Origin: a bacterium
GTDB taxonomy: Bacteria; Joyebacterota; Joyebacteria; Joyebacterales; Joyebacteraceae
DNA length: 64,000 nt
Direction: 5' to 3'
Assembly: GCA_025774935.1 (NCBI GenBank)
Contig: JALGZK010000008.1
Span: forward strand, 17,576 to 81,575
The position numbers and the translations under genes were made by a program. Under the pieces are notes generated by a model. The model was not told where the DNA came from and did not search any database. It saw only the letters and a list, made by a program, of their open reading frames with translations. Below are positions 37,172 through 55,750 of this stretch, in pieces (position 1 is the first letter of the stretch; the number at the start of each line of letters is the position of its first letter).

Positions 37172-37200
37172 TTGACTTGCCGCACACGCGCGCCTATCCT
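37172..37200 (+). promoter_or_regulatory. Candidate sigma-70 promoter for the hdr supercluster (TTGACT-17-TATCCT)
   Basis: TTGACT at 37172-37177, a 17-nt spacer, then TATCCT at 37195-37200. It would give a ~370-nt leader. Confidence 0.35.
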
Positions 37201-37580: not shown

Positions 37581-38513
37581 ATGGAGACCGACAGCCCTCA
37601 TCCCGATCCGTATGTCCCCGAGAGGAACGAACCGCTCGTCGCGGGCGTGAGCAACAAGATCGGCTCCGTCCTCGTCGTCGGCTCCGGCATCTCCGGCATG
37701 CAGGCGGCGCTGGATCTCGCCGATGGCGGCTACTACGTCTACCTTCTCGACAGCGAGCCCGCGATCGGCGGCCTCATGTCGAAGCTCGACAAGACCTTCC
37801 CCACCAACGACTGCGCGATGTGCGTCATGAGCCCCAAGCTCGTGGACTGCGGTCGCCACCTCAACATCGAGCTCGTCACCTACGCTGATGTGAAGAACAT
37901 CGACGGCGTTCCCGGCAACTACAACGTCGAGATCGTCCGGAAGGCGAAGTCGGTCGACGAGGAGAAGTGCACCGGGTGCGGTGACTGCGTGACGGGCTGC
38001 CCGTCGCGGTACGTGGTCCGTCCCCCCGCCGAGGGCGCCCTCTACGAGCCGGAGACCACGGCGGACGAGAGAGATTTCATCGACCGGCTCCTCCGTGAGG
38101 AGGAGGACGTCGAGGGCAACCTCCTCTCGGTCCTCCAGGACGTGAGCGAGTACTCCCGCTACCTTCCCGAGCACGTCCTCAAGTACCTCTCGGACAAGAC
38201 CGGGATCCCCCTGGCGAGGATGATCTCGGTCGCGACGTTCTACGACGCGTTCTCGCTGGAGCCCAGGGGCGAGCACACGATCTCGGTCTGCATGGGAACC
38301 GCATGTCACGTGAAGGGCTCGGGCCTCCTCCAGTCGAGGCTCGAGGACATCCTCCAGATCCAGAGCGGCGAGACCACGGCCGATGGCAAGTTCACACTCC
38401 AGACCGTGAGGTGCATCGGCTGCTGCGCTCTCGCGCCGGCCGTCCGCATCGACGAAGAGACCTTCGGGTTCGTGATGGTGCGCGGGCTCGAGAAGATACT
38501 CAACAGGTTCTAG
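37581..38513 (+). CDS. Fusion protein: HdrA N-terminal FAD-binding fragment + NuoE-like thioredoxin-fold [2Fe-2S] domain
   Basis: Residues ~27-150 align by eye to HdrA (49354) residues ~143-265: VLVVGSGISGMQAALDLA..., TFPTNDCAMCVMSPK and CTGCGDCVTGCP. The C-terminal half has the NuoE/HoxE pattern (VCMGTACHVKG...CIGCCALAP). Confidence 0.85.
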   Translation: METDSPHPDPYVPERNEPLVAGVSNKIGSVLVVGSGISGMQAALDLADGGYYVYLLDSEPAIGGLMSKLDKTFPTNDCAMCVMSPKLVDCGRHLNIELVTYADVKNIDGVPGNYNVEIVRKAKSVDEEKCTGCGDCVTGCPSRYVVRPPAEGALYEPETTADERDFIDRLLREEEDVEGNLLSVLQDVSEYSRYLPEHVLKYLSDKTGIPLARMISVATFYDAFSLEPRGEHTISVCMGTACHVKGSGLLQSRLEDILQIQSGETTADGKFTLQTVRCIGCCALAPAVRIDEETFGFVMVRGLEKILNRF

Positions 38514-38516
38514 CGC

Positions 38517-40424
38517 ATGGCACGCATCAACACACAGGCGGAGTTCGAGCGCGTCGCGAGGGAGGCCGCGGAGCGGTACTGGGGCCGAGGGCTCACGATC
38601 CGGATCGGCATGGCCTCGTGCGGGCTCGCGGCGGGGGCGGGCGCCCTCTACGACGTTGCCGCCGAGCGCGTGAAGGCGAACGGGAACGGTCTCGCCCTGA
38701 CGAGGCTGGGATGCCGGGGAAGCTGCGTCACCGAGCCGATGGTCGACGTGGTCTCCCCGGACTTCCACCTGACCTTCGGGAACGTCACGAAGGCTGGGCT
38801 CGAGGCCATCATGGACGCCGCGGTGGCCGACGACTTCAGTTCGTTCGAGGACGCGGACGCCGTCTGGCAGGAGCGCGAGGAGCTCCGAACCGACGGGACG
38901 GTCTACCGCACCCGGCGAGGCACGCCGTCGCGAATCCCGGACATATCGGAAGTCCCTTTCTACACGCCTCAGCGGAAGATCATCACTCGGAACTGCGGCC
39001 TCATCGACCCCTTCAGCATCGAAGAGGCCCTGGCGAGGGACGGCTACGCCGCGCTCGTCAAGGTGCTCACGGAGAACGACCCGGCGGGTGTCATCAAGAC
39101 CGTGACCGACTCGGGCCTCAGGGGACGAGGCGGCGCCGGGTTCCCGACGGGCCGGAAGTGGGCGTTCGCGAGAGAGGCGGCCGGGGACGAGAAATACGTC
39201 TTCGTGAACGCGGACGAGGGCGACCCCGGTGCGTTCATGGACCGGTCGGTCCTCGAGAGCGATCCCCACGCCGTCCTCGAGGGCCTGGCCATCGGCGCGT
39301 TCGCCGTCGGGGCCTCCAAGGGCATCATCTACGTCAGGGCCGAGTACCCGCTCGCGGTGCAGACCCTGAGGAACGCGATCGTCCAGGCCCGCGAGTACGG
39401 GTTCCTGGGAGAGAACATCCTCGGCTCGGACTTCAGCTTCGACGTCTCGCTCCGCATCGGAGCGGGCGCGTTCGTCTGCGGCGAGGAGACCGCGCTCATC
39501 GCCTCCGCCGAGGGCAGGGTCGGAGAGCCGAGGCCGCGTCCCCCCTACCCCGCGCAGTGCGGGTACAAGGGAGCGCCGACGGTCATCAACAACGTGAAGA
39601 CCTGGTCGGCCGTCGCTCCGATCATCCTGAACGGGGCGGAGTGGTTCGCCGAGGTCGGCTCGGAGAACAGCAAGGGCACGGCTGTCTTCTGCGTCACGGG
39701 CACGATCAAGAACACGGGGCTGGTCGAGGTCCCGATGGGCATGAGCCTGAACGACATCATCCACGACATCGGAGGAGGACCCGAGCGCGAGGGGGCCGAG
39801 CTCAAGGCCGTGCAGACCGGCGGGCCGTCCGGCGGCTGCCTGCCGAAGGAACAGTTCGACCTCAGGGTCGACTACGAGCAGCTCACCGAGGCCGGGTCGA
39901 TGATGGGCTCGGGCGGGATGATCGTCGTCGACGACAGAACGTGCATGGTCAACCTCGCGAAGTTCTTCCTGAACTTCACGATGGACGAGTCGTGCGGGAA
40001 GTGCACGCCGTGTCGGGAGGGAACGCGGAGGATGTACGACCTCCTTGAGAAGATCACGTCGGGGAAAGGCACGGAGGAGGACGTCAGGCTCCTCGAGGAG
40101 CTCGCGGTCTACGTGAAGGACACGTCGCTCTGCGGTCTCGGGGCGACGGCGCCCAACCCCGTGCTCTCGACGCTGAGGTACTTCCAAGACGAGTACGACG
40201 CGCACATCAAGGAGCACCGGTGCCCCGCCGGGGAGTGCGAGGCCCTGATCAGCTTCCACGTGGTCCCCGACAAGTGCACGGTCTGCGGGGCGTGCGCGAA
40301 GGTCTGTCCGGTGAACGCGGTCCTCGAGGCCGGCGAGGCTCCCCCGACGATCGAGCAGGACGCGTGCACCAGGTGCCGCACGTGCTTCGAGGTGTGTCCT
40401 TCGGACGCCATCCGAATCGACTAG
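38517..40424 (+). CDS. NuoF-like NAD(P)H-binding flavoprotein with N-terminal thioredoxin-like domain and C-terminal 2x[4Fe-4S] ferredoxin domain
   Basis: It has the GLRGRGGAGFPTGRKW and ADEGDPGAF motifs, the N3 cluster motif ESCGKCTPCREG, and C-terminal CTVCGACAKVCP / CTRCRTCFEVCP. The architecture resembles the beta subunits of bifurcating hydrogenases and formate dehydrogenases. Confidence 0.9.
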   Translation: MARINTQAEFERVAREAAERYWGRGLTIRIGMASCGLAAGAGALYDVAAERVKANGNGLALTRLGCRGSCVTEPMVDVVSPDFHLTFGNVTKAGLEAIMDAAVADDFSSFEDADAVWQEREELRTDGTVYRTRRGTPSRIPDISEVPFYTPQRKIITRNCGLIDPFSIEEALARDGYAALVKVLTENDPAGVIKTVTDSGLRGRGGAGFPTGRKWAFAREAAGDEKYVFVNADEGDPGAFMDRSVLESDPHAVLEGLAIGAFAVGASKGIIYVRAEYPLAVQTLRNAIVQAREYGFLGENILGSDFSFDVSLRIGAGAFVCGEETALIASAEGRVGEPRPRPPYPAQCGYKGAPTVINNVKTWSAVAPIILNGAEWFAEVGSENSKGTAVFCVTGTIKNTGLVEVPMGMSLNDIIHDIGGGPEREGAELKAVQTGGPSGGCLPKEQFDLRVDYEQLTEAGSMMGSGGMIVVDDRTCMVNLAKFFLNFTMDESCGKCTPCREGTRRMYDLLEKITSGKGTEEDVRLLEELAVYVKDTSLCGLGATAPNPVLSTLRYFQDEYDAHIKEHRCPAGECEALISFHVVPDKCTVCGACAKVCPVNAVLEAGEAPPTIEQDACTRCRTCFEVCPSDAIRID

Positions 40425-40442
40425 CAGGAGCGACCGAGCGAC

Positions 40443-43400
40443 GTGAAGGAACACGAAGAAACCAGATGCTCAGAGCATGACGTGTGCGTGAACGCGGTGC
40501 GGATCACGCTCGACGGCGTGCCCATGGAGGTGGAGCTCGGGACGACGATCCTCGCGGCGGCCACGTCGGCCGGCGTGACGATCCCCACGCTCTGCCACTA
40601 CGGCGGGCTCGAGCCGGCGGGCGCCTGCCGCATCTGCGTCGTGGAGCTCAAGACCGAGCGGGGCAGCAGGCTCGTGCCGGCGTGCCACTACGCCATCGAG
40701 GCCCCCGCCGACATCTCCACGAGCTCTGAGCGCGTCGTCTCGTCGAGGAAGATGACGATCGAGCTCCTCCTCGCCCGCTGCCCGGAAGTGCCGGCACTCC
40801 AGGAGCTCGCCGCGGAGTACGGCGTCGAGACCACGCGCCTCCCGTCGGACGACGACGACTGCATTCTCTGCGGGCTCTGCGTGCGGACCTGCCGCGACCT
40901 CATGGACACCGAGGCGCTCTCGATGGTCGGGCGCGGGCACGGCCGCCGGGTCGCCCCGCCGTACGACAAGAAGTCGCTCGTCTGCATGAGCTGCGGCGCC
41001 TGCGCGTTCGTCTGTCCGACGAACAAGATCAAGATCGCCGATCTGTACGCCGGCAGGACCAGCGAGAACCTCTCGACCTACGACGAGAGGCTCGTTCCCG
41101 TCGGGAACATCCGCCTGAACTACTCGCAGCAGATCCCGAAGGTCCCGGTGATCGACCGCGAGAACTGCGTCCACTTCGTGACAGGCGCGTGCGGCGCGTG
41201 CGAGAAGATCTGCAACGTCGGCGCGATCGACTACGACCAGGAGGACCGCGAGGAGACCCTGAACGTCGGCGCGGTAATCGTGACGCCGGGGTACGACTCG
41301 TACGACGCGTCCCAGAAGGGCGCGCTCGGCTACGGGCGCTACGAGAACGTCCTCACGAACCTCCAGTTCGAGCGGATCCTGAGCGCATCGGGTCCGTGCG
41401 AGGGCGAGATCCGGCGCCCCTCGGACGGCGCGCATCCGAGGAAGGTCGCGTTCCTCCAGTGCGTCGGCTCGCGCGACACGAACGAGGAAGGGAAGCCGTA
41501 CTGCTCGTCGATCTGCTGCATGGCCTCCATCAAGGAGGCGGTCATCGCGCGCGAGCACGACTCGAACGTCGAGCCCACCATCTTCTACATAGACATGCGA
41601 ACGCAGGGCAAGGAGTTCGAGCGGTACTTCGAGGGCGCCAGGAACGACCACGGCATCGTCTTCAAGAGGAGCAGCGTAGCGAAGCTCTACGAGAAGCCGG
41701 CCACGAAGAACCTCGTGGTCCGGCACGTGGACGAGGAGACCGGCGAGATCGCTGAGGAGGAGTTCGACCTCGTCGTCCTCGCCGCTGGCCTCGTCGCGCA
41801 CGAGAGCAACGCCGGTCTCGCCGAGAGCCTCAACATCACGCTCAACGAGCACGGGTTCTGCGAGGGACACACGTACCAGGTGCCGGGAAGCGGTGGTGGG
41901 AACGGCGGTGGGAACGGCGACGGGACGGCCGGGCAGGGCGCCGGGGCGACCGCCGGGTCGGCCGCCGGCATCTTCACGGGCGGCGCCTTCACCGAGCCCC
42001 GATACATCCCGGAGGCCGTCGTCGAGGGGAGCTGCGCCGCCTCGGGCGCCGCGAGGCTACTCGCGGAGGCGCGCGGGACGCTCGCCAGGAAGAAGAAGTA
42101 CCCGAAGCAGCTCGACGTCGCGAAGGCCGTGCCGCGCATCGGCGTGTTCATCTGCCGCTGCGGGATCAACATCGCGGGAACGGTCAACGTCCCGGACGTG
42201 GTCGCCTACTCCGCGACCCTCGGGAACGTCGTCCACGCGTCCGAGTTCGTCTACTCGTGCTCGCAGGACTCGCTCGAGGTCATCAAGGAGACCGTCGCCG
42301 AGCACAAGCTGAACCGCGTGGTGGTCGCGTCGTGCACGCCGAGGACTCACGAGTACCTCTTCGCCGACACCATCCGCGAAGCGGGTCTCAACCGCTACTA
42401 CTTCGAGCTCGCTTCGATCCGGGAACACTGCTCCTGGGTCCACATGCAGGAGCCCGAGCTGGCGACGCAGAAGGCGAAGGAACTCGTGGAGATGATGGTG
42501 AGCAAGGTCCGGGGCGCGCGCCCCGTGAGCCTCGAATACTCGCCGGTCGTCCACCGCGGGCTCGTCATCGGGGGCGGCGTGAGCGGGATGAACGCCGCGC
42601 TGAGCCTCGCCGAGCAGGGCTACGAGGTCGACCTCGTCGAGAAGGAAGGGAAGCTCGGAGGTAACTACCTCAAGCACCGACGCCCGGTCTGGAACCTCTA
42701 CTCCCCGACATACCTCGAGGACCTCGAGGCCGCCGTGCGGGCCAACTCGAACGTCACGCTCCACCTGAACTCGGAGGTGATCCTCTTCTCCGGGGTCGTC
42801 GGGAACTTCTACGCCGAGGTCTGCAACCGCGAGACGGGAGAGGAGCACGAGATTAGCTGCGGCGCGGCCGTCGTCGCGACCGGCGCCGTCGAACGCGAGC
42901 CCGTGGAGTACGGATACGGCACCGACGAGCGGATCATGACGCAGCTCGAGTTCGAGAGCCTGCTGGGCGGCGAGGACGAGCCCGCGCCGGACATCAAGAG
43001 CGTCGCCATGATCCAGTGCGTCGGCTCCCGCGAGGAACCGAACCTCTACTGCAGCAGGATCTGCTGCACGCAGGCCATCCAGAACGCGATGGAGCTCAAG
43101 CGGAGGAACCCCGACGCCACCGTCCACATCATCTACCGCGACATCAGGACGTACGGGGTCCGCGAGGAGCTCTACCGCGAAGCCAGGGAGGCAGGCGTCC
43201 TCTTTCTGCGGTACGACGTCGACCGGAAGCCGGAGGTGACGACAGGCCCGGACGGTCTCAAGCTCAAGGTCTACGACCGGATATCCCGGCGCGAGGTCGA
43301 GCTCGGCCCGGACGCGGTCGTCCTCTCCACCGGCCTCGCCCCGAGACCCGACAGCGAGGAGCTCAGCAAGGTCCTCCGCGTACCGCTCACGCGGGACGGG

Positions 43401-43832
43401 TTCTTCCTCGAGGCGCACGCGAAGATCCGCCCCGTCGACTTCACGTCCGAGGGGCTCTTCCTCGCGGGTCTCGCCCACTCGCCTCGCTTCACGAACGAGT
43501 GTGTGACGCAGAGCCTCGGCGCCTCGGCGCGGGCCGCGACGATCCTCTCGAAGGACAAGGTCGAGTCGAAGGCCGAGATCGTCGAGGTCAACCTCGCCCG
43601 CTGCTCAGGCTGTGCGCTCTGCGTCGGGATGTGCCCGTACGAGGCGAGGCAGCTCGACCCCGAGAGCGGGAAGGCCACCGTGAACGACATCCTGTGCCAG
43701 GGCTGCGGCGCCTGCGCGGGCATCTGCCCGAACAAGGCGACCGTCCAGCACCTGTACAGACAGACACAGATCATGCACATGCTTGAACCCGTCGGCGCGC
43801 AGGCGGGAACGGAGGCGGAGGCGTCGGAGTAA
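40443..43832 (+). CDS. Giant fusion: NuoG-N-terminal-like [2Fe-2S]/[4Fe-4S] module + C-terminal remainder of a split HdrA + a second HdrA/QmoB-like unit
   Basis: 1129 aa. The N-terminus reads ITLDGVPMEVELGTTILAAA...CHY...GACRICVVE, followed by CILCGLCVRTC and CMSCGACAFVCP. Residues ~235-540 align to HdrA residues ~280-570 (QCVGSRD, CSSICCM). Residues ~560-1110 form another HdrA-like unit (GVFICRCGINIAG, GGGVSGMNAAL, QCVGSRE, CSRICC, CSGCALCVGMCP, CQGCGACAGICP). GTG start; the exact start is uncertain. Confidence 0.85.
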   Translation: MKEHEETRCSEHDVCVNAVRITLDGVPMEVELGTTILAAATSAGVTIPTLCHYGGLEPAGACRICVVELKTERGSRLVPACHYAIEAPADISTSSERVVSSRKMTIELLLARCPEVPALQELAAEYGVETTRLPSDDDDCILCGLCVRTCRDLMDTEALSMVGRGHGRRVAPPYDKKSLVCMSCGACAFVCPTNKIKIADLYAGRTSENLSTYDERLVPVGNIRLNYSQQIPKVPVIDRENCVHFVTGACGACEKICNVGAIDYDQEDREETLNVGAVIVTPGYDSYDASQKGALGYGRYENVLTNLQFERILSASGPCEGEIRRPSDGAHPRKVAFLQCVGSRDTNEEGKPYCSSICCMASIKEAVIAREHDSNVEPTIFYIDMRTQGKEFERYFEGARNDHGIVFKRSSVAKLYEKPATKNLVVRHVDEETGEIAEEEFDLVVLAAGLVAHESNAGLAESLNITLNEHGFCEGHTYQVPGSGGGNGGGNGDGTAGQGAGATAGSAAGIFTGGAFTEPRYIPEAVVEGSCAASGAARLLAEARGTLARKKKYPKQLDVAKAVPRIGVFICRCGINIAGTVNVPDVVAYSATLGNVVHASEFVYSCSQDSLEVIKETVAEHKLNRVVVASCTPRTHEYLFADTIREAGLNRYYFELASIREHCSWVHMQEPELATQKAKELVEMMVSKVRGARPVSLEYSPVVHRGLVIGGGVSGMNAALSLAEQGYEVDLVEKEGKLGGNYLKHRRPVWNLYSPTYLEDLEAAVRANSNVTLHLNSEVILFSGVVGNFYAEVCNRETGEEHEISCGAAVVATGAVEREPVEYGYGTDERIMTQLEFESLLGGEDEPAPDIKSVAMIQCVGSREEPNLYCSRICCTQAIQNAMELKRRNPDATVHIIYRDIRTYGVREELYREAREAGVLFLRYDVDRKPEVTTGPDGLKLKVYDRISRREVELGPDAVVLSTGLAPRPDSEELSKVLRVPLTRDGFFLEAHAKIRPVDFTSEGLFLAGLAHSPRFTNECVTQSLGASARAATILSKDKVESKAEIVEVNLARCSGCALCVGMCPYEARQLDPESGKATVNDILCQGCGACAGICPNKATVQHLYRQTQIMHMLEPVGAQAGTEAEASE

Positions 43833-43866
43833 CGCGGCGCCACTCCCCTCCCCGAAAGGAGCAGAG

Positions 43867-44352
43867 GTGGAAGCGACGGTAGAAGGGAAGACACCGACGG
43901 AAGACGGCACCCCGACCACGAGCCAGGGCGCAGGGCCCTTCGAGCCCAAGATCATTGCGTTCGTGTGCAACTGGTGCACGTACGCCGCCGCGGACCTGGC
44001 GGGGACCTCGAGGATCCAGTACCCGCCGAACGTGAAGATCGTGCGGCTCATGTGCAGCGGCGCGATCGATCCGATCTACGTGCTCCGCGCGATCACGGGC
44101 GGGTTCGACGGGGTCCTGATCGGCGGATGCCATCCCGGCGACTGCCACTACCAGACTGGGAACTACAAGGCGCGCAGGCGCGTCACGATCCTGAAGGAGA
44201 TCCTGAAGTCGGTCGGGTACGACGAAGAGAGGGTGTGGCTCCGCTGGATCTCCGCGAGCGAGGGAGGCGCGTTCGCCGCCACGGTGAGCGAGATGGTCGA
44301 GGCACTCAAGTCGCACGGCCCCAACGTTCTCACGACCAACTGGAACAAGTAG
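43867..44352 (+). CDS. mvhD: MvhD-like (methyl-viologen-reducing hydrogenase delta subunit family) [2Fe-2S] protein
   Basis: I chose the GTG start at 43867 after AAAGGAG. It has the blocks IIAFVCNWCTYAAADLAG, VRLMCSG and GGCHPGDCHY. Confidence 0.85.
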   Translation: MEATVEGKTPTEDGTPTTSQGAGPFEPKIIAFVCNWCTYAAADLAGTSRIQYPPNVKIVRLMCSGAIDPIYVLRAITGGFDGVLIGGCHPGDCHYQTGNYKARRRVTILKEILKSVGYDEERVWLRWISASEGGAFAATVSEMVEALKSHGPNVLTTNWNK

Positions 44353-44358
44353 AGACCA

Positions 44359-45480: not shown

Positions 45481-45509
45481 GCGCGCCGGGCTTCTCCTGG
45501 AGAATCGCG

Positions 45510-46229: not shown

Positions 46230-46240
46230 GGAGACGTGAC

Positions 46241-47869: not shown

Positions 47870-47905
47870 CCGAAGGCCATCCGGCGAGCGGCCGAGAGGA
47901 ATGCG

Positions 47906-48319
47906 ATGAAACTGGTTCTTGAACGCGGGGACTTCACGAGGACCTTCCACGAGAGGCTGAAGGAGCTCTCGGGGCAGGACCTCTTCACCTGCTATCAGTG
48001 CGGGAAGTGCTCGGCAGGCTGTCCGAGCGCCGCCGTGATGGACGCTCCCCCGCACGCCATTGTCCGGCTCGCGTGGTTCGGCCAGGAGGATGACCTCATG
48101 AAGCTCAACTCCTACTGGCTCTGCGCGGCGTGCCTGACGTGCGACCTCCGTTGCCCCAAGGGCATCGACATATCGCGGATCATGGAGGCGCTGCGCGTGA
48201 TGTTCCTGCGCCCGAGAGAAGAGCCCGACATGGTGCCGCCCGAGTCCCTTCCGAAAGACATGCTCTCGAGGATCCCGCAGCAGGCGCTCGTGGCGGGAAT
48301 GAGGAAGTACACGAAATGA
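47906..48319 (+). CDS. hdrC: Heterodisulfide reductase subunit C-like (copy 1)
   Basis: 137 aa with CYQCGKCSAGCP and CAACLTCDLRCP. Its stop overlaps the hdrB start (ATGA). Confidence 0.85.
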   Translation: MKLVLERGDFTRTFHERLKELSGQDLFTCYQCGKCSAGCPSAAVMDAPPHAIVRLAWFGQEDDLMKLNSYWLCAACLTCDLRCPKGIDISRIMEALRVMFLRPREEPDMVPPESLPKDMLSRIPQQALVAGMRKYTK

Positions 48320-49329
48320 GGACCTTCTACTACCCCGGCTGCACACTGCCAGACAAGGCGCGCGACTTCGACACGTCCGCGCGCACGACCTGCGACCTCC
48401 TCGGCATCGAGCTCGAGGAGATGGAGAGGTGGGTCTGCTGCGGCTCCGCGTTCAAGCTCGACCGCACGAACGTGATGCAGCACCTGGCGCCGATCAGGAA
48501 CCTCGCGGAGGTGCACAAGGAGGGCGGGAGGCTCATGACCCTGTGCGTCTTCTGCTACAACTCCCTGAAGCGGGCGAACTACGCGTTCAACGCCGCGTCC
48601 GACCGACAGGAGATCCTGAACGACTTCATCGAGTCCGACTACGACGGCAAGGTCCAGGTGGTCCACCTCCTGGAGATGCTCAAGGACGACGTGAGCTTCG
48701 AGGCGCTCGCCGAGCAGGTGAAGCGTCCGCTTACGGGTCTCAAGGTCGCGGTGTTCTACGGCTGCCTCCTCATGCGCCCGTTCAAAGAAGTCGGGTTCGA
48801 GGATCCGGAGAACCCCTCCGTCCTCGAGAGGCTGTTCGAGGCACTCGGCGCCGAGGTCGTCCCGTACCCCCACCACCTCGAGTGCTGCGGGTCGTACCTC
48901 TCGCTCAAAGACCCCGAGCACACGACAACGTGCGTCACGAAGATCCTCGGGTCGGCCGTCGCCGAAGGCGCCAACGCGATCGTCACGAGCTGCCCGATGT
49001 GCAACTTCAACTTCGAGTTCTTCGGCGGAGACCTCGTCTCGAGAAACCAGATCCACACGTTCTACTTCACGGAACTCCTGGCGCTCGCGCTGGGCGCCGA
49101 CAAGGAGCTGTGCGGGCTCGAGCAGCACGAGACCGACGTCGATGGCTTCCTCCAGGACCTCTTCGCCGGACGCGCGGCAACCGAGCCAGTGGCCCCAGAG
49201 CCGGCGACGGAGGAACCGCCCGCCGAGGAGCCCGAGGCCGCCGCGCCCGAGGCGCCCGAGCGACCGGCGGCGAAAGAAGTGCCGGCTGAGAAGGAAGGAG
49301 TCGCCGGGGAGCGCGATCCGAGCGAGTGA
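48316..49329 (+). CDS. hdrB: Heterodisulfide reductase subunit B-like (copy 1) with Pro/Glu/Ala-rich C-terminal tail
   Basis: I trimmed the start to ATG 48316. It has two CCG domains (VCCGSAF, LECCGSYL) and the N-terminal YYPGCTL. The tail reads AATEPVAPEPATEEPPAEEPEAAAPEAPERPAAKE. Confidence 0.85.
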   Translation: MRTFYYPGCTLPDKARDFDTSARTTCDLLGIELEEMERWVCCGSAFKLDRTNVMQHLAPIRNLAEVHKEGGRLMTLCVFCYNSLKRANYAFNAASDRQEILNDFIESDYDGKVQVVHLLEMLKDDVSFEALAEQVKRPLTGLKVAVFYGCLLMRPFKEVGFEDPENPSVLERLFEALGAEVVPYPHHLECCGSYLSLKDPEHTTTCVTKILGSAVAEGANAIVTSCPMCNFNFEFFGGDLVSRNQIHTFYFTELLALALGADKELCGLEQHETDVDGFLQDLFAGRAATEPVAPEPATEEPPAEEPEAAAPEAPERPAAKEVPAEKEGVAGERDPSE

Positions 49330-49353
49330 CGCCGCCCCTGGCGCGCTGAACGG

Positions 49354-51309
49354 ATGACGAGAATCGGAGTGTTCTGTTGCTGGTGCGGGTCGAACATCGG
49401 CGGGGTCGTGGATCTCGACCGGGTGAACGAAGCTGCTTCGAAGATGCCCGGGGTCGTCCACGCGGAGTGCTACCGCTACTTCTGCTCGCAGCCCGGCCAG
49501 AATATGATCGAGGACGCCATCCGGGAGCACGAGCTCACGGGAGTGGTCATCGCGGCCTGTTCTCCGAGCATGCACGAGGGTACGTTCCGGAAGGCGGCGG
49601 AGCGGGCCGGGCTCAATCGGTATCAGGTGGAGATCGTCAACACGCGCGAGCAGGTCGCGTGGGTGCACCAGGACGAACACGAGGCGGCGACCGAGAAGGC
49701 GATCGCGCTCATCGCCGCCATGGTCGAGAAGACGCGGCAGGACAAGCCCCTCTCCCCCGGCCGCGCTCCGGTCGTAAAGCGGGCACTCGTCATCGGGGCC
49801 GGGATCAGCGGCGTCCAGACCGCGCTCGACATCGCCAACGGGGGCTGCGAGGTGATCCTCGTTGAGAAGGAACCGTCGATCGGCGGACACATGGCGCAGC
49901 TGTCGGAGACGTTCCCGACCCTCGACTGCTCGCAGTGCATCATGACGCCGAAGATGGTCGACGTCGCGCAGCACGAGCGCATCAACCTCCTCACGTACTC
50001 GAACGTGGAGGAGATGTCGGGGAGCGTCGGGAACTTCCACGTGAAGATCAGGCGATTGGCCGCGTACGTGGACCGCGACAAGTGCACGAGCTGCGGCGTC
50101 TGCATCGAGAAGTGCCCAGTCAAGGTGTCTTCGGAGTTCGAGATGAACCTCGTCGAGAGGAAGGCCATCTACGTGAACTCGCCGCAGGCCGTTCCGAGCA
50201 CGCCGGTCATCGACGCGGGGAACTGCCTGTTCCTCACGGAGGGGAAGTGCGGCGTCTGCAAGAAGGTCTGCGAGATCGAGGCTGTCGACTACGAGCAGAC
50301 GGACGAGGTCCTCGAGTTCGACGTCGGGGCCGCGGTCGTGGCGACGGGGTTCGACGAGTTCGACCCGAACCTGAAGCCCGAGCTCGGCTACGGGCGCTAC
50401 GAGAACGTCATCACCGGGCTCGAGATGGAGCGGCTGTGCTCGTCGTCTGGTCCGACGGGCGGCGAGATCCTGCTCAACGGGAAGAGCCCGAAGGACGTCG
50501 TCTTCCTCCAGTGCGTGGGCTCGCGCGACGAGTCGGTCGGGAACGAGCACTGCTCGAGGATCTGCTGCATGTCGACCGCGAAGCAGGCGTTCCTGGTCAA
50601 GGAGAAGATCCCGGGAGCGACGGCGACCGTCTTCTACATGGACATCCGCGCGTTCGGGAAGGGCTACGAGGAGTTCTACGACCGCGTCCGGAAGATGGGC
50701 GTCGACTACCGGCGCGGGAGCGCCTCGGAGATCTACCGGCGGAAAGACAGGCTCGTCGTCCGGGCGGAGGACACGCTCGCGGGCGAGCCGGTCGAGGTCG
50801 AGGCGGATCTCGTCGTCCTCGCCGCGGGGCTCGTTCCGCGACGGGACGCAGACGAGATCGCGCAGACGATGAAGCTGTCGCGCTCGACCGACGGGTTCAT
50901 CAGGGAGTCGCACCCGAAGCTCCACCCCGTCGAGACCACGACGGCGGGCATCTTCCTCGCCGGCTGCAGCCAGGGCCCGAAGGACATCCCCGATGCGGTC
51001 GCGCAGGCGGGATGCGCGGCGGCCAAGGTGTTGAGCCTCCTCGCCGCAGGCGAGCTCACCTCCGAGGCAGCGATCGCGGAGGTGAACGAGGAGCGGTGCG
51101 CGGCGTGCGGGATGTGCGAGACGGCGTGCCCGTACGACGCGAGGACGCTCGACGAGGAGAGGAGCGTCGCCGAGGTCGACGAGCTCCTCTGCCAGGGATG
51201 CGGCGCGTGCGTGGCGGCGTGCATGAACAAGGCGTGCGAGCTCAAGAACCTGACGACGCGGCAGATCGGCTCGATGGTGTCGCAGCTTGGCGAGAGAGGA
51301 CGGCACTGA
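49354..51309 (+). CDS. hdrA: Heterodisulfide reductase subunit A (full-length, copy 1)
   Basis: 651 aa. It has the N-terminal Cys domain GVFCCWCGSNIGG, the FAD fold VIGAGISGVQ, an inserted ferredoxin (CTSCGVCIEKCP, CGVCKKVC), the blocks QCVGSRD and CSRICC, and a C-terminal ferredoxin (CAACGMCETACP, CQGCGACVAAC). Confidence 0.92.
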   Translation: MTRIGVFCCWCGSNIGGVVDLDRVNEAASKMPGVVHAECYRYFCSQPGQNMIEDAIREHELTGVVIAACSPSMHEGTFRKAAERAGLNRYQVEIVNTREQVAWVHQDEHEAATEKAIALIAAMVEKTRQDKPLSPGRAPVVKRALVIGAGISGVQTALDIANGGCEVILVEKEPSIGGHMAQLSETFPTLDCSQCIMTPKMVDVAQHERINLLTYSNVEEMSGSVGNFHVKIRRLAAYVDRDKCTSCGVCIEKCPVKVSSEFEMNLVERKAIYVNSPQAVPSTPVIDAGNCLFLTEGKCGVCKKVCEIEAVDYEQTDEVLEFDVGAAVVATGFDEFDPNLKPELGYGRYENVITGLEMERLCSSSGPTGGEILLNGKSPKDVVFLQCVGSRDESVGNEHCSRICCMSTAKQAFLVKEKIPGATATVFYMDIRAFGKGYEEFYDRVRKMGVDYRRGSASEIYRRKDRLVVRAEDTLAGEPVEVEADLVVLAAGLVPRRDADEIAQTMKLSRSTDGFIRESHPKLHPVETTTAGIFLAGCSQGPKDIPDAVAQAGCAAAKVLSLLAAGELTSEAAIAEVNEERCAACGMCETACPYDARTLDEERSVAEVDELLCQGCGACVAACMNKACELKNLTTRQIGSMVSQLGERGRH

Positions 51310-51351
51310 CGAGGTGAGGTTCCGAGAGACGACATCGGACGGGAAGGCTCG

Positions 51352-53298
51352 ATGAATCGCATAGGGGTATTCTGCTGCTGGTGCGGCTCCAACATCGCGG
51401 GGGTCCTCGACCTCGACCGGGTCCTCGAGGAGACCGCTAAGATACCCGGCGTGGCGCACACGGAGTACTACAAGTACTTCTGTTCGCAGCCGGGCCAGGA
51501 GATGGTCATCAACGCCATCCGCGAGCACGAGCTCGACGGCGTGGTCATGGCCGCCTGCTCCCCCAGCATGCACGAGGGCACCTTCAGGAAGGCCGCCCAG
51601 CGCGCCGGGCTGAACGAGTACCAGCTCGAGATCGTGAACGTCCGCGAGCAGTGCTCGTGGGTCCACCAGCTCGAGAAGGACGCCGCGACGGACAAGGCTA
51701 TCAAGCTCATTGCCGCGATGGTCGAGAAGACGAAGCAGAACGAGCCGCTCACGGCCGGGACGGCGCCGGTCGTCCAGCGGGCTCTCGTGATCGGCGCCGG
51801 CATCAGCGGGATGCAGGCCGCGCTCGACATCGCCAACGGCGGGTGCGAGGTTGTCCTCGTCGAGAAGGAGCCCTCGATCGGCGGACACATGGCGCAGCTC
51901 TCCGAGACGTTCCCGACACTCGACTGCTCGCAGTGCATCATGACGCCTAGGATGGTCGAGGTCGCCCAACACGAGAACATCAGGCTCATGACCTACTCGA
52001 ACGTCGACGAGGTGACCGGCAACGTCGGCAACTTCCACGTCAAGGTCCGGACGAAGGCGGCGTTCGTCGACCGCGACACGTGCACGGGCTGCGGGCTCTG
52101 CATCGAGAAGTGCCCCGCGAAGACGAGCTCGGAGTTCAGCCGGGGGCTCGAGAACAGGAAGGCGATCTACGTCAACTCGCCTCAGGCCGTTCCGAACCAG
52201 CCCGTGATCGACGCCGAGCACTGCATGTACCTCCTGAACGGGAAGTGCGGGGTCTGCAAGAAGGTCTGCGAGATCGGCGCGATCGACTACGAGCAGGAGG
52301 ACCGCTTCGAGGAGATCGACGTCGGGGCGATCGTCGTCGCGACGGGGTACGACCTCTACGACCAGAAGGAGTTCCCCGAGTTCGGCGGCGGCGAGATACC
52401 GGACGTCATCGACGGGCTCCAGTTCGAGCGCCTGAACTCCGCCAGCGGTCCGACCCTCGGCGAGATCCGACGCCCCTCGGACGGGAAGATCCCGAAGCAG
52501 ATCGTCTTCATCCAGTGCTGCGGGTCGCGGGACCCGGAGAACGGGGTACCGTACTGCTCGCGCATCTGCTGCATGTACACGGGCAAGCAGGCGATGCTCT
52601 ACAAGCACAAGGTCCACGACGGCCAGGCCTACGTCTTCTACATGGACATCCGCGCGGGCGGAAAGGGCTACGAGGAGTTCATCCAGCGGGGCATCGAGGA
52701 GACGAACACGATCTACTTCCGGGGACGCGTGTCGCGTCTCTACCGGCAGAACGGGAAGGTGATGGTCTCCGGTGTCGACACGCTGTCCGGACAGACCATC
52801 GAGATACCGGCGGACATGGTGGTCCTCGCGACGGCCATCGTGCCGAGCGAGGGCGCCGCGCAGGTCGCCGAGACTCTCAACGTCGCCACGAGCGAGAGCG
52901 GGTTCTTCGCCGAGGCGCACGTGAAGCTCCGCCCCGTCGAGACGCAGCGGCGCGGCATCTTCCTGGCGGGCTGCGCGCAGGCGCCGAAAGACATCCCGGA
53001 CGCGGTGTCGCAGGCGGGATGCGCCGCCTCGAAGGCGCTTGCCCTCCTCGCGTCGCGGCAGCTCAAGTCCGAGGCGCAGGTCGCGATCGTCGACGAGGAA
53101 CGGTGCGCCGCGTGCGGCATGTGCGTCGCGGCGTGCCCCTACGGAGCGAGAACCCTCGACGAGGAGCGGAACGTTGCCGAGGTCGACGAGAGCCTGTGCG
53201 AGGGATGCGGAGCGTGCGTGGCGACGTGTCTCAACAAGGCGTGTGAGCTCAAGAACCTGACGTCTCGACAGATCAGCACGATGGTCGGGGAACTGTAA
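51352..53298 (+). CDS. hdrA: Heterodisulfide reductase subunit A (full-length, copy 2; tandem paralogue)
   Basis: 648 aa, collinear with copy 1 and highly similar by eye (MNRIGVFCCWCGSNIAG..., CTGCGLCIEKCP, QCCGSRD, CSRICC, CAACGMCVAACP, CEGCGACVATC). Confidence 0.92.
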   Translation: MNRIGVFCCWCGSNIAGVLDLDRVLEETAKIPGVAHTEYYKYFCSQPGQEMVINAIREHELDGVVMAACSPSMHEGTFRKAAQRAGLNEYQLEIVNVREQCSWVHQLEKDAATDKAIKLIAAMVEKTKQNEPLTAGTAPVVQRALVIGAGISGMQAALDIANGGCEVVLVEKEPSIGGHMAQLSETFPTLDCSQCIMTPRMVEVAQHENIRLMTYSNVDEVTGNVGNFHVKVRTKAAFVDRDTCTGCGLCIEKCPAKTSSEFSRGLENRKAIYVNSPQAVPNQPVIDAEHCMYLLNGKCGVCKKVCEIGAIDYEQEDRFEEIDVGAIVVATGYDLYDQKEFPEFGGGEIPDVIDGLQFERLNSASGPTLGEIRRPSDGKIPKQIVFIQCCGSRDPENGVPYCSRICCMYTGKQAMLYKHKVHDGQAYVFYMDIRAGGKGYEEFIQRGIEETNTIYFRGRVSRLYRQNGKVMVSGVDTLSGQTIEIPADMVVLATAIVPSEGAAQVAETLNVATSESGFFAEAHVKLRPVETQRRGIFLAGCAQAPKDIPDAVSQAGCAASKALALLASRQLKSEAQVAIVDEERCAACGMCVAACPYGARTLDEERNVAEVDESLCEGCGACVATCLNKACELKNLTSRQISTMVGEL

Positions 53299-53900
53299 TG
53301 GCGACGAAGACGACGGCGACCATCATAGACACGACACAGGCCGGAACCGCTGGCGGCGAGCTCTGCTCCGCCGTGATCGAGTCGAGCGGCCAGCCGGTTC
53401 TCTCCTGCTACCAGTGCCAGCGGTGCGGTGGCGGGTGCCCCGTGGCCGTCGCGAGCGGGACCACTCCCAGCGACTTCCTCCGGCTCCTGTCCCTCGGCCT
53501 CGCCGACGAGGCGCGGAAGAGCCCACTCCTCTGGCTGTGCGCCGGGTGCGGGACCTGCGGCGCGCGATGCCCGAACAAGATCTCGACGAACGAGGTCATC
53601 GACGAGCTGAGGGCGGTGACGGCAGGGCGCGGGAGCGCTGCCGAGGGAACTGGCGACATCCCGGTGTTCCACCGGCTGTTCCTCAAGCAGATCCAGTACC
53701 TCGGCCGCCAGCACGAGCTCTTCCTGATCGGCGCGCTCAAGATGCGTACGCGGAAGTTCCTCAAGGACATCGATCTCGGCTATCAGATGTTCCGGAAGGG
53801 GAAGCTGCCGCTCCTGCCCCACAGGGCGTCCGGCATCCCGGAGGTGCGGTCGATCTTCAAGGCGAGGGCGAACGCGAGGAAGGGGGCCGGCGAGCGATGA
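53298..53900 (+). CDS. hdrC: Heterodisulfide reductase subunit C-like (copy 2)
   Basis: 200 aa with CYQCQRCGGGCP and CAGCGTCGARCP. Its start overlaps the hdrA stop and its stop overlaps the hdrB start (ATGA). Confidence 0.8.
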   Translation: MATKTTATIIDTTQAGTAGGELCSAVIESSGQPVLSCYQCQRCGGGCPVAVASGTTPSDFLRLLSLGLADEARKSPLLWLCAGCGTCGARCPNKISTNEVIDELRAVTAGRGSAAEGTGDIPVFHRLFLKQIQYLGRQHELFLIGALKMRTRKFLKDIDLGYQMFRKGKLPLLPHRASGIPEVRSIFKARANARKGAGER

Positions 53901-54760
53901 ACCGATACTGCTATTACCCCGGCTGCTCCCTCACCTCCTCGGCCGTCGAGTACGACCGGTCGTGCCGGTCGGTCTGCGAGGCGCTCGGGATCAGGCTCGA
54001 CGAGCCCGCCGACTGGAACTGCTGCGGCGCGTCATCAGCGCACGCGCTCGACCGTGACGTCGACCTGGCGCTCTCGGCGAGAAACATCTCACTCGCGCAC
54101 CGCGAGGGGCTCGAGATGGCGATCCCGTGCGCCGCGTGCTACTCGCGCACCGCGCACGCGTGGCAGGTGCTCAGAGACGACCCGGACGAGAGACGGAAGC
54201 TCGAGAGCGAACTCGGCTTCGAGTTCCGCGAGGACCTCCCGGTCCATCATCTCCTGCAGATCGTCGATGAGGTGACGGCGGTCCGAGGCCTGGCCAGGCC
54301 CGCCGACGATGGGGCCGAGCCCGGCGACGGGTCCGGTGACGTGACCCGGATCGTCCCCGGCGTCTCGAAGGTCGCGTGCTACTACGGCTGCCTCATCAAC
54401 CGGCCGCGGAACATCAACCCAGGCGACGACATGGAGAACCCGCAGGCGATGGAGAGGATTCTCGCCCGCGCAGGATACGAGTCCGTGCCGTGGTCGTTCG
54501 CGACGGAGTGCTGCGGTGCCTCGCTCTCGTTGACGCGCGACGACGTGGTCCGTGATCTCGTCGGGCGCATCGTCGACGCAGCGCGGGAGGCGGGCGCCGA
54601 CGCGATCGTGACCGGCTGCCCGCTCTGCCAGGTGAACCTCGAGTCGCGGCAGGACGGGGGGTTCCCCGTGTTCTACTTCACTGAGCTTCTCGGCGTAGCG
54701 CTGGGGCTTCCCGAAGCGAAGGACTGGCTCAGGATGCACCTCGTGGACACGGGCGCCTGA
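53897..54760 (+). CDS. hdrB: Heterodisulfide reductase subunit B-like (copy 2)
   Basis: I trimmed the start to ATG 53897. It has the N-terminal YYPGCSL and two CCG domains (NCCGASSAH, TECCGASLSL). Confidence 0.85.
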   Translation: MNRYCYYPGCSLTSSAVEYDRSCRSVCEALGIRLDEPADWNCCGASSAHALDRDVDLALSARNISLAHREGLEMAIPCAACYSRTAHAWQVLRDDPDERRKLESELGFEFREDLPVHHLLQIVDEVTAVRGLARPADDGAEPGDGSGDVTRIVPGVSKVACYYGCLINRPRNINPGDDMENPQAMERILARAGYESVPWSFATECCGASLSLTRDDVVRDLVGRIVDAAREAGADAIVTGCPLCQVNLESRQDGGFPVFYFTELLGVALGLPEAKDWLRMHLVDTGA

Positions 54761-55572: not shown

Positions 55573-55585
55573 CCTGCAGCACCTC

Positions 55586-55685: not shown

Positions 55686-55707
55686 CTCGGTGAATCTAAG
55701 AACATCA

Positions 55708-55733: not shown

Positions 55734-55750
55734 CGTGTGTCACGGACCGG

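Follow-up and report, generated by a model that had tools for sequence, protein, structure and literature searches.

A 13-gene heterodisulfide reductase cluster from a Joyebacterota bacterium as a candidate soluble fumarate reductase with a split HdrA::Bfu core

To which acceptor, and by which route, a large cytoplasmic assembly of heterodisulfide reductase (Hdr) subunits may pass its electrons is the question raised by a string of 13 genes on contig JALGZK010000008.1 (assembly GCA_025774935.1) of a bacterium of the phylum Joyebacterota. The stretch analysed, hereafter the window, is 64,000 nucleotides (nt) long; the string occupies its positions 37581-54760 (~17 kb), with all 13 open reading frames (ORFs; G1 to G13) on the + strand. 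A previous reading of the letters alone (the sequence-only reading) had proposed a large soluble bifurcating or confurcating machine linked to NADH and ferredoxin, and had left its terminal substrate open between a disulfide, fumarate and a sulfur carrier. An NADH/ferredoxin-linked bifurcating system is a reasonable interpretation. As for the substrate, fumarate was rightly among the three candidates, but the choice is no longer open-ended: residue conservation in G7, gene neighbourhoods in other genomes and the literature agree on fumarate as the most likely substrate of the G7/G6 pair, and we narrow it to fumarate with moderate confidence. The reading that we favour, which we hold to be about evenly balanced between right and wrong, is that the operon encodes a soluble NADH- and ferredoxin-linked, Hdr/Bfu-coupled fumarate reductase. 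The most notable feature of the cluster is a widespread and apparently undescribed HdrA::Bfu split core, combined here with putative soluble fumarate reductases of an Hdr-linked family that is uncharacterised. It is built from known kinds of modules, in an arrangement that we did not find described in the literature.

Coordinates and strand of the string were confirmed, and the identical 13 genes are present in an independent public gene call on a contig that carries this sequence (NCBI GCA_025774965.1, JALGZJ010000010.1). Pfam and NCBIfam profiles, sequence searches of the PDB and maps of cysteine motifs, applied to each product, returned the split and fused domain order that had been listed before: [HdrA-N::NuoE], NuoF, [NuoG-N::HdrA-C::HdrA'], MvhD, an FdhB/FrhB-like protein, an FrdB-like and an FrdA-like protein, HdrC, HdrB, HdrA, HdrA, HdrC and HdrB. 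No product attains a curated NCBIfam equivalog cutoff. The bifurcating modules claimed earlier correspond to products homologous to flavin-based HdrA and to Bfu-type NuoEF-like modules, and the window indeed holds no hydrogenase, formate dehydrogenase or MetF gene. The predicted solubility also stands, with no transmembrane segment predicted in the 13 products (maximum KD19 1.69, at the FAD fold of G7). From the count of cysteine motifs together with homology, the products would carry ~38-44 iron-sulfur (Fe-S) clusters and 6-7 flavins, and the former estimate of more than 30 clusters and at least six flavins is plausible.

The argument for fumarate begins with G7 (46241..47869, + strand, 542 amino acids (aa)), an FrdA-like flavoprotein of the Sdh/Frd/NadB type (Pfam FAD_binding_2, 3e-72). 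Alignment to SdhA (7d6v) and NadB (5kxj) confirmed four of the five dicarboxylate-site motifs (HPT, TExxRG, HYxxGG and NRLxGNSL); the fifth, the RD in 'ETRDVES', was placed by eye as the putative catalytic-Arg site. At the position of the His that binds FAD covalently, the PDB alignment gives Asn in G7, as in soluble fumarate reductases and NadB, and within the Sdh/Frd family Asn at this position goes with fumarate reduction rather than succinate oxidation. The best NCBIfam match of G7 is TfrA, at 325 bits against a cutoff of 718 and ending at model position 423 of 546. A family-specific and conserved N-terminal extension of ~95 aa sets G7 apart from SdhA, FrdA and TfrA, and the family comprises more than 8000 proteins at E<1e-30, named just "FAD-binding protein" or "Sdh/Frd flavoprotein". 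An L-aspartate oxidase (NadB) was considered for G7 and ruled out by its nadB score (276 against 453), by the Gly aligned with Glu121 of 5kxj, which we take to be the aspartate-specific residue of NadB, and by the obligate Fe-S partner G6; no nadA or nadC was noticed among the neighbour genes examined in homologous loci.

The partner, G6 (45510..46229, + strand, 239 aa), is FrdB/SdhB-like, with Pfam Fer2 and dicluster domains and weak NCBIfam matches to TfrB and dhsB. It contains the plant-type 2Fe-2S motif CxxxxCxxC...C followed by two complete CxxCxxCxxxCP motifs. In classical SdhB the second motif position serves a 3Fe-4S cluster with three Cys, whereas the second motif of G6 has four.

Gene neighbourhoods agree with this assignment. 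In a genome scan with one genome per species, at least 577 loci were confirmed, 80 of which were kept and had the 13 window proteins mapped onto them. In these 80 loci, G6-G7 are 56-63% identical and span more than 10 phyla (Spirochaetota, Planctomycetota, Bacillota, Chloroflexota, Thermodesulfobacteriota, KSB1, Zixibacteria, Gemmatimonadota, Acidobacteriota and others), and the G6 homologue adjoins the G7 homologue in 75. The architecture was informative in 70 loci, and the FrdBA pair is preceded by HdrC-HdrB, with or without HdrA-MvhD, in 59 of them. Four types were distinguished: type A, the stand-alone four-gene unit HdrC-HdrB-FrdB-FrdA (25 loci); type B, HdrC-HdrB-HdrA(-MvhD)-FrdB-FrdA (14 loci); type C, HdrB-HdrC-HdrA-MvhD-FlxC-FlxB-FlxA-FrdB-FrdA (seven loci); and type D, HdrA-HdrA-HdrC-HdrB-[giant double HdrA]-MvhD-G5-FrdB-FrdA (13 loci). 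The remaining 11 have no Hdr genes upstream.

To identify neighbours, all ORFs of the loci were clustered and representatives run against Pfam. The alpha and gamma subunits of 2-oxoacid:ferredoxin oxidoreductase were found in eight loci, succinyl-CoA synthetase beta and alpha in eight, class I fumarase in six, and the large and small subunits of NiFe hydrogenase in 11. Among the 61 loci with enough downstream sequence, 20 carry at least one of class I fumarase, succinyl-CoA synthetase and 2-oxoacid:ferredoxin oxidoreductase beside FrdBA. Such neighbours occur in all four architecture types, and in the loci nearest to the window's layout (L010, L012, L023 and L037) SucCD genes lie downstream of FrdA. 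It is mainly because of these 20 loci, with their fumarate-making or succinate-using enzymes, that we call G6/G7 a candidate fumarate reductase. A different neighbourhood was seen in Desulfofundulus thermobenzoicus (L003, 2261-7221), where a phosphoserine-aminotransferase-like gene, SerA, a His_Phos_1 phosphatase and seryl-tRNA synthetase stand directly upstream of HdrC-HdrB-FrdB-FrdA; this serC-serA-phosphatase-serS set was considered as a clue to another substrate and dropped, as it recurred in no other locus.

The input modules around FrdBA vary, and include NiFe hydrogenase, FlxC-FlxB-FlxA (Sporomusa, Clostridium), an NfnB/GltD-like insert (L053) and the Bfu cassette (the window and its relatives). 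In type B, frdBA lies between mvhD and the hydrogenase genes (mvhD-frdBA-mvhGA, with one HdrCB); FlxA, FlxB and FlxC were confirmed by Pfam in the type C locus of Sporomusa rhizae; and the order MvhD-G5-FrdB-FrdA is fixed in the 13 type D loci and in the window's relatives. Published systems are likewise in accord with fumarate: FrdABEF of S. fumaroxidans lacks a membrane subunit and rises on fumarate (PMC5947623), and in the reductive tricarboxylic acid (TCA) cycle clusters of tubeworm symbionts tfrAB is interleaved with flxABCD-hdrABC and korABCD, for which flavin-based bifurcation from NADH to fumarate and ferredoxin has been proposed (PMC6315080, PMC11636981).

The NADH module would lie in the first three genes, where an HdrA is interrupted by a Bfu cassette. 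G1 (37581..38513, + strand, 310 aa) joins the first part of an HdrA FAD domain to NuoE/BfuC (Pfam 2Fe-2S_thioredx, 1.7e-41). The HdrA part, residues 17-143 (nt 37629-38009), holds a CxxC with the Cys197 equivalent (C81) plus one CxxCxxCxxxCP motif, and matches positions 139-256 of NCBIfam HdrA2 and residues 141-266 of the HdrA in PDB 8rvu (~125 residues). Residues 165-308 (nt 38073-38504) form a thioredoxin-like [2Fe-2S] domain of the NuoE/BfuC type and match the HydC/BfuC chains of 8a6t, 9bov and 9mqx at 1e-38 to 1e-30.

G2 (38517..40424, + strand, 635 aa; Pfam Complex1_51K and NADH_4Fe-4S) is, judging from its matches, a BfuB-type protein and not a plain NuoF. It has FMN and NADH sites, an N3-type 4Fe-4S cluster and a C-terminal 2x[4Fe-4S] domain with both ferredoxin motifs conserved, ahead of which stands the conserved Cys pair of an RCPxxxC; residues 138-632 match HydB of the A. 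mobile NiFe-Bfu enzyme (7t2r_B) at 702 bits. Scores are 698 bits with NfnB of 9n5u, 580-690 bits with HydB and related chains in six more PDB entries, several of them named electron-bifurcating hydrogenases, and 378 bits with Nqo1 (2fug). The N-terminal extension (residues 1-137) has three Cys only (C35, C66 and C70), and the 9n5u alignment begins at residue 28; in the Bfu family, BfuB has an N-terminal [2Fe-2S] domain and five clusters in all (PMC9304861).

G3 (40443..43832, + strand, 1129 aa) was divided by Pfam, NCBIfam and PDB matches into NuoG-N/BfuA, the remainder of HdrA unit 1 and an HdrA' unit 2. Its BfuA-like residues 19-202 (nt 40497-41048; PDB 9mqx_A, 1e-42) have a 2Fe-2S motif and two 4Fe-4S motifs and are without the motif for a His-ligated cluster, a pattern that looks like Type 2 in the scheme of Schut et al., which covers Bam- and Wor-Bfu (PMC9304861). 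The remainder of unit 1, residues 181-560 (nt 40983-42122), consists of the inserted ferredoxin and FAD domains and is without the C-terminal ferredoxin domain. Unit 2, residues 564-1129 (nt 42132-43829), has an N-terminal cluster domain and a C-terminal 2x[4Fe-4S] domain, and its FAD domain contains neither the inserted ferredoxin domain nor Cys197. PDB 5odc_A aligns to G3 in three pieces (181-454, 564-795 and 957-1115), and 6tjr matches too. Late in the FAD domain of unit 1, at ~487-525 (window ~41900-42020), G3 carries a Gly-rich low-complexity stretch, GSGGGNGGGNGDGTAGQGAGATAGSAAG, where G10 has a short PVETTT segment.

Based on alignments to a type D protein of ~1000 residues (L039), G1 and G3 are two pieces of the type D double-HdrA gene: G1 29-141 aligns with residues 12-130 of that protein, and G3 181-1117 with residues 119-1008. 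Piece 1 is extended at its end by a fused NuoE, piece 2 is preceded by a fused NuoG-N, and NuoF (G2) stands between them; the break point is within the inserted ferredoxin domain. As the CxxCxxCxxxCP motifs are shared out between the two proteins, with one at the end of G1 and three in G3, the middle one of which aligns to both BfuA and the first HdrA motif, two dicluster domains are probably assembled across the G1/G3 interface. Electrons leave canonical HdrA at low potential, for ferredoxin, by way of the inserted ferredoxin domain, and at high potential by way of HdrC-HdrB (PMC9012536, PMC13518236). Because the cassette interrupts this low-potential, ferredoxin-facing domain, the Bfu core would, by homology, stand in for free ferredoxin as the partner of the split HdrA unit. 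A comparable protein is encoded in L053 (Gemmatimonadota bin29, CP070758.1; 1585-6018), a 1477-aa single-chain counterpart of G1 plus G3 whose residues 161-552 are a GltD/NfnB-like Fer4_20 + Pyr_redox_2 module placed in the inserted ferredoxin domain. Its insertion point aligns ~30 residues further on than the Bfu break of the window, and this looks like a second, independent insertion of an NAD(P)H module in an FrdBA-linked cluster.

The split core is widespread, and is combined elsewhere with other partners. A search with G1 gave 5053 proteins at E<1e-20; each of the 120 matches listed has 280-334 residues and aligns to 86% or more of G1, with the FAD-fold and NuoE Pfam families both on record for all but one, and they come from Planctomycetota, Dehalococcoidia, Thermoplasmata archaea and others. 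The order HdrC-HdrB-[HdrA-N::NuoE]-NuoF-[NuoG-N::HdrA-C::HdrA']-MvhD was found without FrdBA in three distant contexts: in L083 with a Rex gene upstream and FlxCBA and a molybdopterin enzyme downstream, in a Thermoplasmata locus (L084) with LarA, GlcD/GlcF-like lactate enzymes and an FrhB-like protein, and in a third locus with MvhD, MetF and GltB-like proteins. In L084 (ENA ERZ23498665) a tandem pair of nuclease-like genes of the DUF1016/YhcG family also separates hdrB from the G1 homologue (7938-9999), and the upstream genes are LarA, a GlcD-like dehydrogenase, a GlcF-like CCG protein and a lipoate-protein-ligase-like gene. In a limited literature search we found no published HdrA::NuoE/Bfu fusion, and Hdr-linked bifurcating fumarate reductases were found described as genome-based models only; the sole combination of Bfu with HdrA listed by Schut et al. 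is Bam-Bfu (PMC9304861), and the HdrA::Bfu split core appears to be undescribed so far.

Downstream of the core, G4 (43867..44352, + strand, 161 aa; GTG start, as in the public call) is an MvhD/FlpD-type [2Fe-2S] protein (Pfam FlpD, 4e-52) that also matches VhuD and the HdrA2 C-terminus in NCBIfam. G5 (44359..45480, + strand, 373 aa) is an FdhB/FrhB-like Fe-S protein (Pfam FrhB_FdhB_C and Fer4_8), possibly flavin-binding. It is a full-length relative of the FdhB of Fdh-Hdr complexes (8rvu_E, 9t1s_M and 7bkb_E in the PDB, 1e-26 to 1e-18) and distantly FlxC-related, with 22-32% tblastn identity to the gene following mvhD in Flx-type loci.

The Hdr subunits proper follow the FrdBA pair. G8 (47906..48319, + strand, 137 aa; CoB_CoM_SS_C in Pfam and NCBIfam) is an HdrC-like 2x[4Fe-4S] protein and belongs, by synteny, to the HdrC lineage found with FrdBA in types A, B and C, in an "FrdF"-like position. 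G9 (48316..49329, + strand, 337 aa) is HdrB-like, with two Pfam CCG domains and a full-length match to the HdrB 8rvu_b (1e-36); its last 50 residues form a Pro/Glu/Ala-rich tail, PVAPEPATEEPPAEEPEAAAPEAPERPAAKEVPAEKEG, past the end of the PDB HdrB match near residue 282. Two complete HdrA proteins come next, G10 (49354..51309, + strand, 651 aa) and G11 (51352..53298, + strand, 648 aa; identified by NCBIfam and its Cys map), scoring 815 and 772 bits with NCBIfam HdrA2 (cutoff 1100). Both match the HdrA2 and HdrA models over the full length and have all HdrA Cys groups: the N-terminal cluster domain, the FAD domain with the Cys197 equivalent, and the inserted and C-terminal ferredoxin domains. 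They are 68% identical to one another; the HdrA of type B, C and D loci is 50-60% identical to G11 and 46-55% to G10, and by this measure G11 is the paralogue nearer to the HdrA of other FrdBA-linked loci. Pfam, NCBIfam and synteny assign G12 (53298..53900, + strand, 200 aa) and G13 (53897..54760, + strand, 287 aa) to the HdrC and HdrB lineages of type D loci. HdrB scores are 159 and 112 against 345, and HdrC scores 62 and 65 against 160 (NCBIfam). G9 and G13 each have two complete C..CC..CxxC (CCG) motifs, and G8 and G12 two CxxCxxCxxxCP motifs each. What had been called a duplicated HdrABC is better taken as a conserved HdrA-HdrA tandem with HdrCB pairs of different lineages. With 40% identity between G8 and G12, 35% between G9 and G13, and different synteny partners, a recent duplication was ruled out, and G8/G9 and G12/G13 are two distinct HdrCB lineages.

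If these parts work together as we propose, fumarate would be reduced to succinate at G7, with its non-covalent FAD, and the Fe-S partner G6. Coupling to NAD(H) and ferredoxin would pass through modules of three types: HdrC/HdrB (G8/G9 and G12/G13), the HdrA-type bifurcating flavoproteins (G10, G11 and the split G1/G3 pair) and the Bfu-type NuoE/F/G-N module (the G1 C-terminus, G2 and the G3 N-terminus). As the overall reaction we propose 2 NADH + fumarate + Fd(ox) -> 2 NAD+ + succinate + Fd(red), where Fd is ferredoxin. Fumarate reduction is strongly exergonic (E0' ~ +30 mV), and since the mean acceptor potential of the net reaction is ~ -210 mV, against -320 mV for NADH, this would be thermodynamically easy; part of the ~350 mV drop would be kept as reduced ferredoxin, e.g. 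for the 2-oxoacid synthases of a reductive TCA branch. That the products form one complex is an inference, and so are substrate, stoichiometry, flow direction and internal electron path. Regarding the site of attachment, the type B layout and the fused layout of TfrB suggest that FrdBA may sit on the high-potential arm formed by HdrC-HdrB; from the constant order MvhD-G5-FrdB-FrdA it would be expected on the canonical donor arm.

Expression of the string as a single operon is supported by its spacing and by the scarcity of terminators. Intergenic distances from G1 to G13 are 3, 18, 34, 6, 29, 11, 36, -4, 24, 42, -1 and -4 nt, so that the "3-40 nt gaps or ATGA overlaps" described earlier were essentially right (measured range -4 to 42 nt); there are two ATGA overlaps, G8/G9 and G12/G13. 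The terminator scan found one weak + strand site within the string, inside G13. The sole sigma-70-like match on the + strand upstream of G1 (37172..37200) is a weak consensus match within the 495-nt divergent intergenic region, and such promoter and terminator matches mean little in a genome of 67% GC. The gene for Rex precedes the split core in L083, for which reason a Rex operator was looked for upstream of G1; one match with three mismatches, inside the neighbouring gene, is at chance level. The GC content at third codon positions is 0.83-0.94 for the 13 ORFs (stop-to-stop frames); the G9 frame has 0.83 and the G13 frame 0.74, lower because 5' non-coding sequence is included in these frames.

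Several observations weigh against the proposed fumarate reductase, or against its operation as a unit. G6 is only distantly SdhB-like (mitochondrial SdhB, 9fq7_2N, 4e-6 over residues 30-177). G7 falls under every curated NCBIfam cutoff for Sdh, Frd, Tfr and NadB (nadB TIGR00551, 276 against 453), and Pfam finds no Succ_DH_flav_C (PF02910) in it, the protein ending ~45 residues past the FAD domain. Pfam analysis of the string and its flanks detected no TCA genes in the window itself, and we know of no biochemistry for any member of the G6-G7 FrdBA family or for the HdrA::Bfu core. The 13-gene order, moreover, is conserved in part: in a relative whose G7 is 92% identical, the genes from G3 to G8 stand in unchanged order, but the layout differs in relatives with 79% identical G7, which have unrelated genes after G7 in place of G8-G9; in L081, which covers the upstream side, the order is HdrA-HdrC-HdrB-G1-G2-G3-G4-G5-G6-G7. 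Given these differences, the string is an assembly of modules also found separately; it looks like a type D + Bfu cluster, rotated, that has gained an HdrC-HdrB pair (G8/G9) of the type A/B/C lineage. The complete CCG motifs in both HdrB proteins suit a thiol/disulfide intermediate as well as direct wiring. Finally, a plain path with NADH in and fumarate out misfits the canonical scheme, because by analogy with canonical HdrA the Bfu cassette would be at the low-potential exit and MvhD-G5, the neighbours of FrdBA, at the donor entry (PMC9012536).

The retained CCG motifs lead to a serious rival, a bacterial analogue of the methanogen Tfr + Hdr cycle, which we regard as possible, if unlikely. 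Here two enzymes would be joined by a diffusible or protein-bound dithiol/disulfide: G6-G9 would act as a four-subunit thiol:fumarate reductase, with oxidation of the dithiol taking place at the G9 CCG clusters, and G1-G5 with G10-G13 an NADH/ferredoxin-linked disulfide reductase that re-reduces the carrier at G13. In its favour, each HdrB-like protein retains two complete CCG motifs, G6, G8 and G9 taken together cover the archaeal TfrB layout (NCBIfam NF004898 matches G6 and G9), the G8-G9-G6-G7 unit stands alone in 25 loci, and the two HdrCB pairs of the window are of different lineages. A link of DsrC to FrdABEF has been suggested for S. fumaroxidans (PMC5947623), and a DsrC-like carrier was considered in the Riftia model (PMC11636981). 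However, the annotated window genes include no candidate carrier (DsrC/TusE-like or lipoate-binding protein), and in types B and D the single HdrCB pair beside FrdBA makes a shuttle between two CCG sites impossible within the cluster. CoM and CoB are not expected in this bacterium.

The genes may also be functionally separate, with G6-G9 acting as a peripheral, type-E-like quinol:fumarate reductase or succinate dehydrogenase inside an Hdr-Bfu operon with a different substrate, or G7 using L-aspartate or another enoate; this we consider doubtful. G9 matches the MFR SdhE anchor model and HdrB equally well (2.7e-46 and 2e-46), the HdrA::Bfu core occurs elsewhere with MetF, lactate-dehydrogenase-like or Fdh/Flx partners and no FrdBA, quinone-related genes (a polyprenyl synthase and an Nqr-like locus) lie downstream, and the sub-cutoff scores of G7 with the Frd, Sdh and NadB models fit as well. 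Against separation speak the fixed MvhD-G5-FrdB-FrdA order in 13 type D loci and the window's relatives, the position of frdBA between mvhD and the hydrogenase genes in type B, and the lack of any predicted membrane or amphipathic anchor; for L-aspartate, the missing NadB-type Glu of G7 and the neighbourhoods examined, in which nadA and nadC were not noticed, argue likewise.

Highly improbable, in our view, is a Bam-like tandem in which Bfu confurcates NADH and reduced ferredoxin to electrons of ~ -400 mV that feed HdrA, with fumarate as the high-potential sink of HdrA and very low-potential electrons passed to an acceptor that the string does not encode: the same role has been proposed for BamGHI feeding the HdrA-like BamE in class II benzoyl-CoA reductase (PMC9304861), the BfuA part of G3 resembles Type 2 (Bam-, Wor-Bfu), and three or four HdrA-type flavin sites exceed the need of a single bifurcation, but neither the window nor the related loci examined hold a low-potential reductase (BamB-like or Fwd-like), no physiological purpose is evident in spending reduced ferredoxin on fumarate, and the Bam proposal itself has not been demonstrated.

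Returning to the Hdr/Bfu-coupled fumarate reductase, soluble NADH-dependent fumarate reduction would lose ~350 mV if uncoupled. To our knowledge, such a coupled enzyme that saves reduced ferredoxin has been proposed from genomes and never demonstrated. The comparative data support this genome-based proposal, with one FrdBA pair in more than 10 phyla, almost always behind Hdr subunits and with exchangeable inputs of H2 or NAD(P)H. What looks like a large enzyme family could matter for reductive or branched TCA cycles, for syntrophy and for anaerobes of gut and sediment. The HdrA::Bfu split fusion is also a structural hypothesis for the joining of two known non-quinone bifurcation mechanisms, and bears on the mechanism of the Bam complex and of Moorella-type methylene-tetrahydrofolate reductases. 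A bolder version, for which we see little likelihood, is that the split core wires two bifurcation sites of different mechanism, the Bfu flavin/Fe-S site and the HdrA FAD, in series through the ferredoxin port of HdrA. With fumarate as a strongly positive sink, such a cascaded double bifurcation would reduce ferredoxin at more than one pair for each fumarate, or bring electrons far under -500 mV; if true, the split core would serve high-potential cytoplasmic reductases in general as an energy-conserving plug-in, with fumarate reductase, methylene-tetrahydrofolate reductase and lactate/pyruvate enzymes as candidates.

Directly downstream of the string, on the - strand (54838-63851), Pfam identified a flavin/quinone electron-transfer locus with two FMN_bind lipoprotein-like genes, ApbE (flavin transferase), a porin, a fused Hpre_diP_synt_I + CbiQ membrane protein, a NusG_II-domain protein, a polyprenyl synthase, a rubrerythrin-like protein, an NqrF-like Fer2/FAD/NAD protein and an Rnf/Nqr membrane subunit. 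The set resembles the Listeria-type locus for flavin-based extracellular electron transfer, here in a diderm context. On the other side, gene calls are uncertain at window 16000-24000, where the GC content reaches 0.70-0.72 and long ORFs overlap on both strands; an FG-GAP/PQQ beta-propeller protein (18828-20681) and a radical-SAM protein of 834 aa (20922-23426) are encoded here. They are followed at 24374-27466 by a TPR + sigma-54 activator protein of 1030 aa. At 1182-4898, on the - strand, a putative PolX/PHP-like gene, an RtcB-like RNA ligase and an archease-like gene were recognised in a row by eye from the translations.

Among known systems, the Flx-Hdr + TfrAB clusters of sulfur oxidisers with a reductive TCA cycle (Endoriftia, the Escarpia symbiont and Thioflavicoccus mobilis), described as models only, also combine a cytoplasmic Frd/Tfr with HdrABC, MvhD/FlxD and an NADH module (PMC6315080, PMC11636981); the likeness is one of gene description. 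Type C loci (Sporomusa rhizae, L036, and Clostridium) resemble these clusters in having flxDCBA directly upstream of the G6-G7 homologues. The window differs in its NADH module, a Bfu-type NuoE/F/G-N cassette fused into a split HdrA, and in two extra full HdrA and a second HdrCB; it is without kor, acl or other TCA genes. A plain Flx-Hdr identity was ruled out, as the window annotations include neither FlxA (FAD_binding_6/NAD_binding_1/2Fe-2S) nor FlxB, and of the Flx proteins only FlxD (MvhD) and the distantly FlxC-like G5. The FrdABEF of S. fumaroxidans (Sfum_4092-4095) is likewise a fumarate reductase without a membrane subunit, has Hdr-like partners and is abundant on fumarate (PMC5947623). 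Five Syntrophobacteraceae loci (L017, L033, L034, L038 and L047) carry the G8-G9-G6-G7 four-gene unit. FrdABEF is a stand-alone unit of four genes and has not been purified, whereas in the window the unit is embedded in an Hdr-Bfu operon; FrdABEF is likened to it by description and not by sequence, and the Sfum genome has two further SdhAB-like clusters. TfrAB of Methanothermobacter is another soluble fumarate reductase, with a TfrB that joins an SdhB-like part to HdrB-type CCG domains. The window proteins score far under the equivalog cutoffs (TfrA 325 against 718, TfrB 28-32 against 385), the functions of TfrB are spread over G6, G8 and G9, G7 is without the C-terminal part of the TfrA model, and coenzymes M and B (CoM-SH and CoB-SH) are not expected in the window's organism.

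The class II benzoyl-CoA reductase BamBCDEFGHI shares with the window a Bfu module (BamGHI), a double HdrA-like protein (BamE), MvhD (BamF) and an HdrBC/D-like subunit (BamD), and is the only described system found with all four together (PMC9304861). Its catalytic end is different: that of the window is FrdBA, with a high-potential acceptor, and the substrate of Bam is at -622 mV. BamE and BamGHI are separate subunits, whereas in the window the Bfu genes interrupt HdrA, giving HdrA-N::BfuC and BfuA::HdrA-C. No gene for a BamB/BamC tungsten reductase, and none of the AOR family, was found in the cluster or its annotated flanks (18.8-63.9 kb); a Bam-type benzoyl-CoA reductase was ruled out by the missing BamB/AOR gene and the Frd-like catalytic end. 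HdrA with an NfnB/GltD-like module is known as HdrL in Desulfobacterium autotrophicum (PMC2702500) and as HdrA9-11 in ANME-1 (PMC9012536), and L053 is this HdrL/HdrA-NfnB form in an FrdBA-linked cluster. The window carries a three-gene Bfu cassette and not an in-frame NfnB/GltD-like domain, so its HdrA is physically two polypeptides. In the fused double HdrA of Moorella (MetFV-HdrABC-MvhD), Cys197 and the N-terminal domain are lost in a complementary way (PMC9012536). G1/G3 are alike in this respect, unit 1 keeping Cys197 without the N-terminal domain and unit 2 having the N-terminal domain without Cys197. To the MvhAGD-HdrABC and FdhAB-MvhD-HdrABC complexes of methanogens (5ODC, 7BKB and 8RVU) the window is related through G10-G13, G4 and G5, full-length homologues of HdrA, HdrC, HdrB, MvhD and FdhB, and type B loci carry NiFe hydrogenase genes as MvhAGD-HdrABC does; the window differs in having no hydrogenase or FdhA and in the addition of FrdBA, and a heterodisulfide substrate is unlikely. 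The component types all occur widely and have in part been treated in the literature, which makes the cluster less exceptional than it first seemed.

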